Assembly (NCBI RefSeq): GCF_050920415.1
Contig: NZ_CP169309.1
Length of the DNA stretch: 64,000 bases
Strand: one strand, 5' to 3'
Source of the DNA: Escherichia coli
GTDB taxonomy: Bacteria > Pseudomonadota > Gammaproteobacteria > Enterobacterales > Enterobacteriaceae
Positions 43,159 through 45,199 of the stretch are shown piece by piece. Under the pieces are notes generated by a model that did not search any database, was not told where the DNA came from, and was given only the letters and a program-made list of their open reading frames with translations. Position 1 is the first letter of the stretch. Each line of letters starts with the position of its first letter. The translations under genes were made by a program, and so were the position numbers.

Positions 43159-43740
<582 letters not shown>

Positions 43741-43748
43741 TGATTTCT

Positions 43749-43780
43749 CGCGCGGGCAATCTTGCCCGCGCTTCTGCTCT
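43749..43780 (+). terminator. Terminator-like hairpin after ppiA
   Basis: CGCGGGCA-ATCT-TGCCCGCG stem-loop followed by a T-rich tract. Confidence 0.5.
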
Positions 43781-43844
43781 CCCGGCGTAACCCGGATTTG
43801 CCGCTTATACTTGTGGCAAATGGACACGTTCAGGGAGGCATCAA

Positions 43845-44012
43845 GTGAAGAAACTCACCGATAAGCAAAAGTCCCGTCTCTGGGAGCTTCAGCGTAATCG
43901 TAATTTCCAGGCCAGTCGCCGTCTTGAAGGCGTCGAGATGCCTTTAGTTACTCTTACTGCCGCAGAGGCTTTAGCGCGCCTTGAAGAGCTGAGGAGGCAC
44001 TATGAGCGATAA
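43845..44012 (+). CDS. yhfG: Small protein YhfG (antitoxin-like partner of Fic)
   Basis: Not in the ORF track. GTG 43845 gives [55 protein letters not shown] (55 aa); 3' end overlaps the fic start by 11 nt. Confidence 0.8.
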
Positions 44013-44604
44013 ATTCGGCGAAGGGCGCGATCCGTATCTTTATCCTGGCCTTGATATCATGCGGAACCGGCTGAACATCCGCCAGCAACAGCGGCTGGAA
44101 CAGGCCGCTTACGAAATGACGGCGCTGCGTGCTGCGACCATTGAGCTTGGTCCGCTGGTGCGCGGTTTACCGCATTTGCGCACTATCCATCGCCAGCTGT
44201 ATCAGGATATTTTCGACTGGGCGGGGCAACTGCGTGAAGTTGATATTTATCAGGGCGATACGCCGTTCTGCCACTTTGCTTATATCGAAAAAGAGGGCAA
44301 TGCCCTGATGCAGGATCTGGAGGAAGAAGGGTATCTGGTTGCCCTGGAGAAAACGAAGTTCGTCGAGCGGCTGGCACACTACTATTGTGAAATCAACGTC
44401 CTGCATCCCTTCCGGGCGGGAAGTGGTCTGGCACAGCGGATCTTCTTCGAGCAACTGGCGATTCATGCTGGTTATCAACTGAGCTGGCAGGGTATTGAAA
44501 AAGAGGCCTGGAATCAGGCAAATCAGAGTGGGGCAATGGGGGATCTCACTGCGCTGCAGACGATATTTAGCAAAGTGGTAAGCGAAGCCGGGGAATCTGA
44601 GTAA
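44002..44604 (+). CDS. fic: Fic-domain protein (AMPylase family)
   Basis: 200 aa; Fic motif region [12 protein letters not shown]. Confidence 0.93.
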
Positions 44605-44635
44605 AATAGCGCGGTTCTTTCGTACCGGAGCCGCC

Positions 44636-45199
44636 ATGATCCTGCTTATTGATAACTACGATTCTTTCACCTGGAACCTCTACCAGTACTTTTGTGAACT
44701 GGGGGCCGACGTGTTGGTTAAGCGCAACGATGCGTTAACGTTGGCGGATATCGACGCCCTGAAACCGCAAAAAATTGTTATCTCACCTGGACCCTGTACG
44801 CCGGACGACGCAGGGATCTCCCTTGACGTTATTCGCCACTACGCCGGGAGTTTGCCGATTCTTGGCGTCTGCCTCGGTCATCAGGCAATGGCGCAGGCAT
44901 TTGGTGGCAAAGTTGTGCGCGCAGCAAAGGTGATGCACGGCAAAACCTCGCCGATCACACATAACGGTGAGGGCGTATTTAAGGGGCTGGCAAATCCACT
45001 CACCGTGACACGCTACCATTCGCTGGTGGTGGAGCCTGACTCATTACCGGAGTGCTTTGAAGTGACGGCCTGGAGCGAAACCCGCGAGATTATGGGGATT
45101 CGCCATCGCCAGTGGGATCTGGAAGGCGTGCAGTTCCATCCAGAAAGTATTCTCAGCGAACAAGGACATCAACTGCTGGCTAATTTCCTGGAACGCTGA
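44636..45199 (+). CDS. pabA: Aminodeoxychorismate synthase component II (glutamine amidotransferase)
   Basis: 187 aa [19 protein letters not shown]..., catalytic GVCLGHQ. Confidence 0.95.

Follow-up and report, generated by a model that had tools for sequence, protein, structure and literature searches.

The overlapping yhfG-fic gene pair of Escherichia coli and its relation to FicTA modules

The Fic family is named after the E. coli gene fic, and the fic-1 phenotype was described more than 40 years ago. In the stretch of E. coli DNA that we analysed (64,000 nt, here called the window), fic overlaps the end of a small ORF and lies directly upstream of pabA. A first-pass annotation had taken the two genes for a Fic AMPylase with a small partner protein, forming a toxin-antitoxin-like module embedded in an operon with pabA, and the question that this locus raises is how far these names fit the pair. 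A 2009 study predicted that Fic/Doc-YhfG is a toxin-antitoxin system (PMC2701414); in 2016, Stanger, Harms, Dehio and Schirmer gave the genes their new names, ecficA and ecficT (PMC5033356).

The overlapping genes and their expression

The pair lies on the + strand between ppiA (43168-43740, +) and pabA (44636-45199, +), the latter starting 31 nt 3' of fic and being followed by argD, also on the + strand. The small ORF, yhfG (EcFicA), extends from 43845 to 44012 (+) and comprises 55 codons, from a GTG start to a TAA stop at 44010-44012, while fic (EcFicT) occupies 44002-44604 (+) with 200 codons and an ATG start at 44002. The earlier description of a 55-codon GTG-initiated ORF that ends 11 nt inside fic was thus exact, and the overlap (44002-44012, +), with the sequence ATGAGCGATAA, is dual-coding, giving M-S-D-K in fic and ..Y-E-R-stop in yhfG. 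Read directly from the sequence, both genes have a strong Shine-Dalgarno element on the + strand: GGAGG at 43834-43838, 6 nt before the GTG of yhfG, and GAGGAGG at 43991-43997, 4 nt before the ATG of fic and within the 3' end of yhfG. Antisense ORFs over fic, such as the one at 44167-44637 on the − strand (156 codons), were rejected as shadow ORFs, since they lie opposite a conserved coding gene and nothing favours them.

By itself, a length of 55 codons is within chance for an ORF in 64 kb. YhfG matched Pfam PF10832 with an E-value of 1.6e-24 (85.9 bits versus a cut-off of 22.6) and the NCBIfam equivalog NF007573 (128.4 bits versus a cut-off of 77), and it was 98% identical to PDB 5JFF_B, named 'Uncharacterized protein YhfG'. 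In the 100%-identical genome NZ_CP169399, RefSeq annotates yhfG with the same GTG and the same 11-nt overlap; the remark that the gene was absent from the ORF track therefore held for the first-stage track, but not for public annotation. A 1-kb query located the pair in 5425 of the 5426 complete E. coli genomes, where the genes carry the annotations 'yhfG: YhfG family protein' and 'fic'. The same query gave 5428 matching places, one of them on a plasmid-typed record, and one genome had no match. For comparison across species, one genome per species was scanned with the Fic protein, resulting in 80 loci from Enterobacteriaceae (81 sequences with the window added), in genera that include Escherichia, Salmonella, Citrobacter, Klebsiella, Enterobacter, Kosakonia, Raoultella and Leclercia and reach out to Shimwellia, Edaphovirga and Tenebrionibacter. 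Diversity of yhfG at the three codon positions in this survey was 0.19, 0.18 and 0.49, a coding pattern, and the start codon, at a homologous position, was GTG in 35 of the 81 sequences and ATG in the other 46, an exchange at a single codon that provides good comparative evidence for the true start. Taken together, the family matches, the identity to the crystallized protein, the RefSeq annotation and the coding variation indicate that yhfG is a real gene; the small ORF is YhfG and the pair is EcFicA/EcFicT.

Upstream of the pair, the ppiA-yhfG spacer contains a terminator-like hairpin at 43750-43771 (+), GCGCGGGC-AATCTT-GCCCGCGC, with a predicted RNA fold of -20 kcal/mol (z -3.7) and a stem conserved over 79 aligned intergenic regions; this GC-rich hairpin probably acts as the ppiA terminator, setting ppiA apart from the yhfG-fic unit. 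The most conserved part of the spacer in the intergenic alignment was the block TTGCtGCTTATACTTgt..GGCAa, with TATACT (43806-43811, +), the −10 hexamer of the sigma-S-dependent fic promoter. This promoter needs no −35 element and is RpoS-dependent (PMC5650638, citing Utsumi 1993 and Tanaka 1995), and yhfG-fic was RpoS-dependent in strain EDL933 as well (PMC2907692). Scanning for the sigma-70 consensus found no promoter 5' of yhfG, as expected from a published promoter that lacks a −35 element. The classical 'fic promoter', whose hexamer is located upstream of yhfG, thus drives yhfG first.

On the pabA side, the + strand showed no terminator-like site in the gap after fic, and the 31-nt spacing was conserved in most of the species surveyed, making read-through into pabA plausible. 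The pair lies directly 5' of pabA with no such site in between, in agreement with the operon assigned by the first-pass annotation, and yhfG, fic and pabA may be co-transcribed. Co-transcription of fic and pabA was reportedly described by Tran and Nichols in 1991. At the yhfG/fic junction, the RNA fold of the window was no better than that of shuffled sequences (z -0.19), and the consensus fold of 23 species contained 2 pairs at about 0 kcal/mol. We therefore rejected a hairpin that keeps the ribosome-binding site of fic masked ahead of yhfG translation, as no junction structure was observed in the window or in the consensus; if translation is coupled, the source would be ribosomes that terminate at 44012, beside the fic start, and not an unmasking hairpin. 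A scan of the entire 64-kb window against Rfam, on both strands and at gathering thresholds, returned no family.

The inhibitory motif of YhfG and the signature loop of Fic

The first-pass annotation had proposed to look for the inhibitory motif (S/T)xxxE(G/N) in YhfG or Fic. Direct reading of the sequence located it in YhfG, where residues 24-29, S24-R-R-L-E28-G29 (43914-43931, +), fit [S/T]xxxE[G/N]. The locus therefore combines a FIC domain fold with a separate, upstream small protein carrying an inhibitory motif, which is the arrangement of a class I Fic protein or FicTA pair. In K-12, EcFicA and EcFicT form a stable 1:1 complex with a Tm of 63 °C, and two mutant complexes have been solved (PMC5033356; PDB 5JFF and 5JFZ). 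EcFicA S24 and E28 bind EcFicT R146 in this complex, the contact between E28 and R146 being a salt bridge in the crystal structure (PMC5033356), and both residues of the bridge, YhfG E28 and Fic R146, are present in the window as they are in the K-12 pair.

Fic itself matched the NCBIfam equivalog NF007672 (426 bits), whose label is 'putative adenosine monophosphate-protein transferase', and contained the Fic domain PF02661 (E 7.7e-14). It was 97.5% identical to the crystallized EcFicT (PDB 5JFZ_A), with further matches to VbhT, Fic-1 and NmFic. According to the alignment to 5JFZ_A, the codon at 44164-44166 (+) encodes G55, the position of the classical fic-1 mutation, G55R (PMC5033356), and is wild type here. 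We compared the signature loop (H135-R146; 44404-44439, +) with the adenylylation-competent consensus HxFx(D/E)GNGRxxR. The catalytic His135 and the second arginine, Arg146 (R2), are kept, and the loop is degenerate at three positions, which bind ATP and Mg2+ in AMP-transferases and are neutral here, with A139 in place of the acidic residue, S141 in place of Asn and L143 in place of the first arginine (R1), so that it departs from the motif of a competent AMP-transferase. The same kind of degeneracy has been described for K-12 Fic, which carries V139 (PMC5033356). Position 139 (codon 44416-44418) is Ala in the window, Val in K-12 and Ile or Leu in most genera, and among the species representatives Ala139 occurred elsewhere only in Escherichia whittamii; the residue belongs to the signature loop and forms part of the lining of the hydrophobic groove that was reported for K-12. 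Just 19 of the 5425 E. coli genomes were at least 99% identical to the window over the 1-kb locus. With L143, A139, A36, Y67 and F71, the window protein has the traits of the EcFicT-like subgroup 3 of Stanger et al. (2016).

The name of AMPylase that the first-pass annotation had given to Fic is supported neither by this loop nor by published assays. EcFicT showed neither auto- nor target-adenylylation, even when the inhibition motif of its partner was mutated (YhfG E28G), which Stanger et al. ascribed to L143 together with the hydrophobic residue at 139 (PMC5033356), and in a second laboratory EcFic (b3361) purified from E. coli without its partner did not AMPylate E. coli GyrB or ParE (PMC7479194). 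These data bear on the reading of the pair as a canonical FicTA module, in which free Fic would AMPylate GyrB and ParE and arrest growth, with YhfG as a labile antitoxin. Such a reading is consistent with the class I architecture with its intact inhibitory motif, with the homology of the window protein to the gyrase AMPylases VbhT (116 bits) and Fic-1 (166 bits), with the NCBIfam name and with a 2024 review stating that ectopic EcFicT strongly inhibits the growth of E. coli, citing Harms 2015 (PMC10886550). If the review is correct, some toxic activity of Fic exists; published statements on toxicity disagree, as the primary papers report no activity and the protein was purified alone in one of them. 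Against a canonical module stand the loss of R1, the acidic residue and Asn from the motif, the missing adenylylation with YhfG E28G and the unmodified GyrB and ParE, and we regard a canonical module as very improbable. The first-pass annotation had named a Fic that is inactive or non-toxic regardless of YhfG as grounds for giving up its view, and for AMPylation the literature comes close to just that. E. coli Fic has been called 'toxin-like', and fic knock-outs are viable (PMC5033356).

Conservation of the pair and its natural variants

The gene order ppiA-yhfG-fic-pabA was retained in nearly all of the 80 species. An intact yhfG ORF was present in 79 of them (80/81 with the window), and the 11-nt overlap, whose conservation in other enterobacteria the first-pass annotation had suggested checking, was likewise kept in 79 (80/81 with the window), the exception being Shimwellia, where a TGA stop lies 1 nt before the ATG. 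The 11 bases of the overlap were nearly invariant, with a per-site diversity of 0.16 or less; the sequence AGGGAGG before the yhfG start was conserved in nearly all 80 species, and a purine-rich counterpart of the fic Shine-Dalgarno element was conserved across the related loci. Diversity of fic by codon position was 0.18, 0.14 and 0.52, and the excess of variation at the third position in both genes shows that YhfG and Fic are both under purifying selection as proteins. A patchy, mobile distribution is a trait of type II toxin-antitoxin systems, while the pair occupies a fixed position in about 80 species and in all but one of the 5426 E. coli genomes. This syntenic locus, with no sign of mobility, also speaks against a canonical FicTA module, and EcFicT-like proteins have been described as derived from canonical AMP-transferases, syntenic and vertically inherited in Enterobacteriaceae (PMC5033356). 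The term 'toxin-antitoxin-like module' is hence justified as regards FicTA ancestry (PMC5033356), but not as regards mobile behaviour, given a syntenic, vertically inherited locus and a viable fic knock-out.

Synteny breaks or neighbouring insertions were noted among the related loci. In Enterobacter sp. kpr-6 (L026:3143-3929), an inserted module of two genes, read from the opposite strand, separates fic from pabA; it encodes a toxin of the RelE family (PF06296, E 1e-36) together with an HTH_3 protein. Here, a mobile toxin-antitoxin pair has landed beside the domesticated one, and the extra 840 nt of a further locus (L033) probably have a similar origin. In Dryocola boscaweniae (L063:3608-4777), fic is followed by a gene for a RafY-like glycoporin (PF16966) and pabA is not there, one of the few synteny breaks in the survey.

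Within the Fic motif, His, Phe, both Gly residues and R2 were invariant in all 81 sequences. At R1, 72 sequences have Leu, Ile, Met or Val and nine have Arg, and position 5 (residue 139) was acidic in 1/81 only, that of Edaphovirga. In a neighbour-joining tree of Fic rooted with Pseudomonas Fic-1, the 72 sequences whose R1 is hydrophobic formed one clade, which includes the window; in this clade Fic has a residue other than Glu at position 36 together with Tyr67, and YhfG has Arg25 in 71/72, whereas the nine basal sequences have Fic Glu36 and Phe67 and a YhfG residue other than Arg at position 25. The partner thus changed along with the pocket. We did not accept the covariation of YhfG position 25 with the Fic pocket (9/9 versus 1/72) as statistical support, since its single origin in the rooted tree makes it one evolutionary event with no independent replication. 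In its evolutionary results, the survey agrees with what has been published and brings no finding of another kind.

The motif [S/T]xxxE[G/N] of YhfG was kept in 76 of the 80 related loci, as it is in the window, and the four exceptions were two Trabulsiella species, Edaphovirga and the type-strain assembly of Escherichia albertii. Trabulsiella YhfG (L038 and L046) reads SRRLER, with Arg instead of Gly or Asn at the last motif position. In Edaphovirga cremea (L079) YhfG reads STALDG, where Asp replaces the inhibitory Glu, and the Fic motif of this species, HPFRDGNGRAQR, is the sole fully canonical one among the 81 sequences. In E. albertii NBRC 107761 = DSM 17582 (L004:2344-2511), codon 13 of yhfG is changed from TGG to TGA (..KSRL*ELQ..), and the overlapping fic is intact, with its full 200 codons and whole motif; if this is no sequencing error, the allele is a natural Fic without a full-length partner. 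The best identity to this yhfG allele among the E. coli genomes was 95.9%. Together with the SRRLER motif of Trabulsiella, the E. albertii allele suggests that gating by YhfG may not be indispensable, and a truncated yhfG beside a whole fic is a further argument against a labile antitoxin restraining a canonical toxin. In E. coli MS 21-1 (NZ_CP146670; L081:4303-7321), the IS21-family element ISEc10 (istA, istB) is inserted inside fic; yhfG is whole, and the element separates pabA from the upstream promoter. This insertion indicates that fic is dispensable in a human colon isolate, and both natural variants, MS 21-1 and E. albertii, hint at tolerance.

Dispensability could also be taken to mean that the locus is a decaying relic, a dead Fic with a leftover YhfG that is kept for the pabA promoter or upstream transcript, as the degenerate signature motif, the lack of detected activity (PMC5033356, PMC7479194), the viable fic knock-out (PMC5033356) and the ISEc10 insertion in MS 21-1 would allow. 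We consider this extremely unlikely. Full-length copies of both ORFs occur in 79 of 80 species and, as far as large rearrangements can tell, in about 5422 of 5426 E. coli genomes; variation shows a strong third-position excess; the catalytic His and R2, as well as YhfG Glu28, hardly vary if at all; and many subgroup-specific surface positions are conserved (PMC5033356).

The most convincing explanation, which we hold to be very likely, is that the chromosomal yhfG-fic pair consists of a Fic protein of class I with its small partner, derived from a FicTA module and domesticated into a core gene pair that is inherited vertically. The two genes would be transcribed in stationary phase by sigma-S from the TATACT promoter that lies 5' of yhfG, with transcription possibly running on into pabA, and the overlap would couple their translation, so that every Fic would be made together with its partner. 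The two proteins would bind 1:1, with YhfG Glu28 occupying Fic R146 at a remodelled active site into which ATP would no longer fit and where the catalytic His is kept. Fic may then be an enzyme whose pocket has been remodelled for a donor substrate other than ATP, acting on some target and gated by YhfG at the remodelled site. The idea of an enzyme with a new substrate draws on sequence conservation, and Stanger et al. stated that EcFicT-like proteins probably bind some substrate (PMC5033356).

Relation to known systems

The nearest known system is the K-12 pair EcFicT/EcFicA (5JFF, 5JFZ; PMC5033356), which represents the same genes at the same locus, with 97.5% identity for Fic and 98% for YhfG. 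The two pairs share the 11-nt overlap, SRRLEG, the degenerate loop with L143 and S141, and G55, and the differences are allelic only: H27R, G114A, A117T, V139A and M187T relative to K-12 Fic, and S51R relative to YhfG. The pair, its overlap, inhibitory motif, degenerate site, vertical inheritance and sigma-S promoter are already known and had been published by 2016. The window adds nothing to the question of the biochemical function of Fic, and its practical value is a correction of names: for this orthologue, the labels 'AMP-protein transferase' and 'toxin-antitoxin' are not to be accepted as they stand.

VbhT/VbhA of Bartonella schoenbuchensis, YeFicTA and PaFicTA have the same fold as the window pair (PMC5033356). 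These modules carry the canonical motif HPFx(D/E)GNGRxxR, AMPylate GyrB and ParE, are toxic and reside on mobile elements, whereas the window pair has a degenerate motif, no detectable AMPylation according to the K-12 data and a fixed chromosomal position.

Among solved relatives outside Escherichia, the closest is Fic-1/AntF of Pseudomonas bijieensis 2P24 (PDB 8WT0; 166 bits). Fic-1 aligned to the window protein without gaps over residues 1-196, so that H135, R146, S24 and E28 are numbered identically; it carries HPFREGNGRAQR and AMPylates GyrB, and together with AntF it removes the AMP again (PMC13327609). According to this 2026 paper, the complex of Fic-1 with AntF acts as a deAMPylase that requires AntF Glu28 (PMC13327609). 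By analogy, YhfG-Fic might be an obligate two-subunit eraser, that is, the heterodimer might be a working enzyme and not a silenced toxin, such as an eraser or hydrolase of a nucleotide-type protein modification, in which YhfG Glu28 would be catalytic. The ungapped alignment with its common numbering, the conservation of His135, Arg146, Ser24 and Glu28 though the ATP-binding residues have been lost, and the invariant overlap and very stable complex (Tm 63 °C, PMC5033356), as would suit an obligate two-subunit protein, are in favour of this analogy. If it were true, the loss of the ATP-binding residues would mark an enterobacterial lineage that kept the second activity only. Unlike Fic-1, however, the window protein lacks E29, E36, E139, N141 and R143, and three of the four acidic cleft residues of Fic-1-AntF (E29, E36 and E139) are Q29, A36 and A139 here. 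In addition, no AMPylated E. coli substrate is known to need erasing, since the E. coli Fic itself writes no AMP mark, and the yhfG of the E. albertii assembly contains a nonsense codon. We therefore judge a two-subunit eraser to be unlikely.

A further related system is Phd-Doc, in which a toxin of the Fic/Doc fold has its small partner encoded upstream and carries a signature motif off the AMP-transferase consensus, an arrangement shared with the window pair. Doc is a kinase, i.e. its chemistry has changed (as cited in PMC5033356). Unlike the window pair, Phd-Doc belongs to another subfamily, with a different partner fold and motif, and is phage- or plasmid-borne and clearly toxic.
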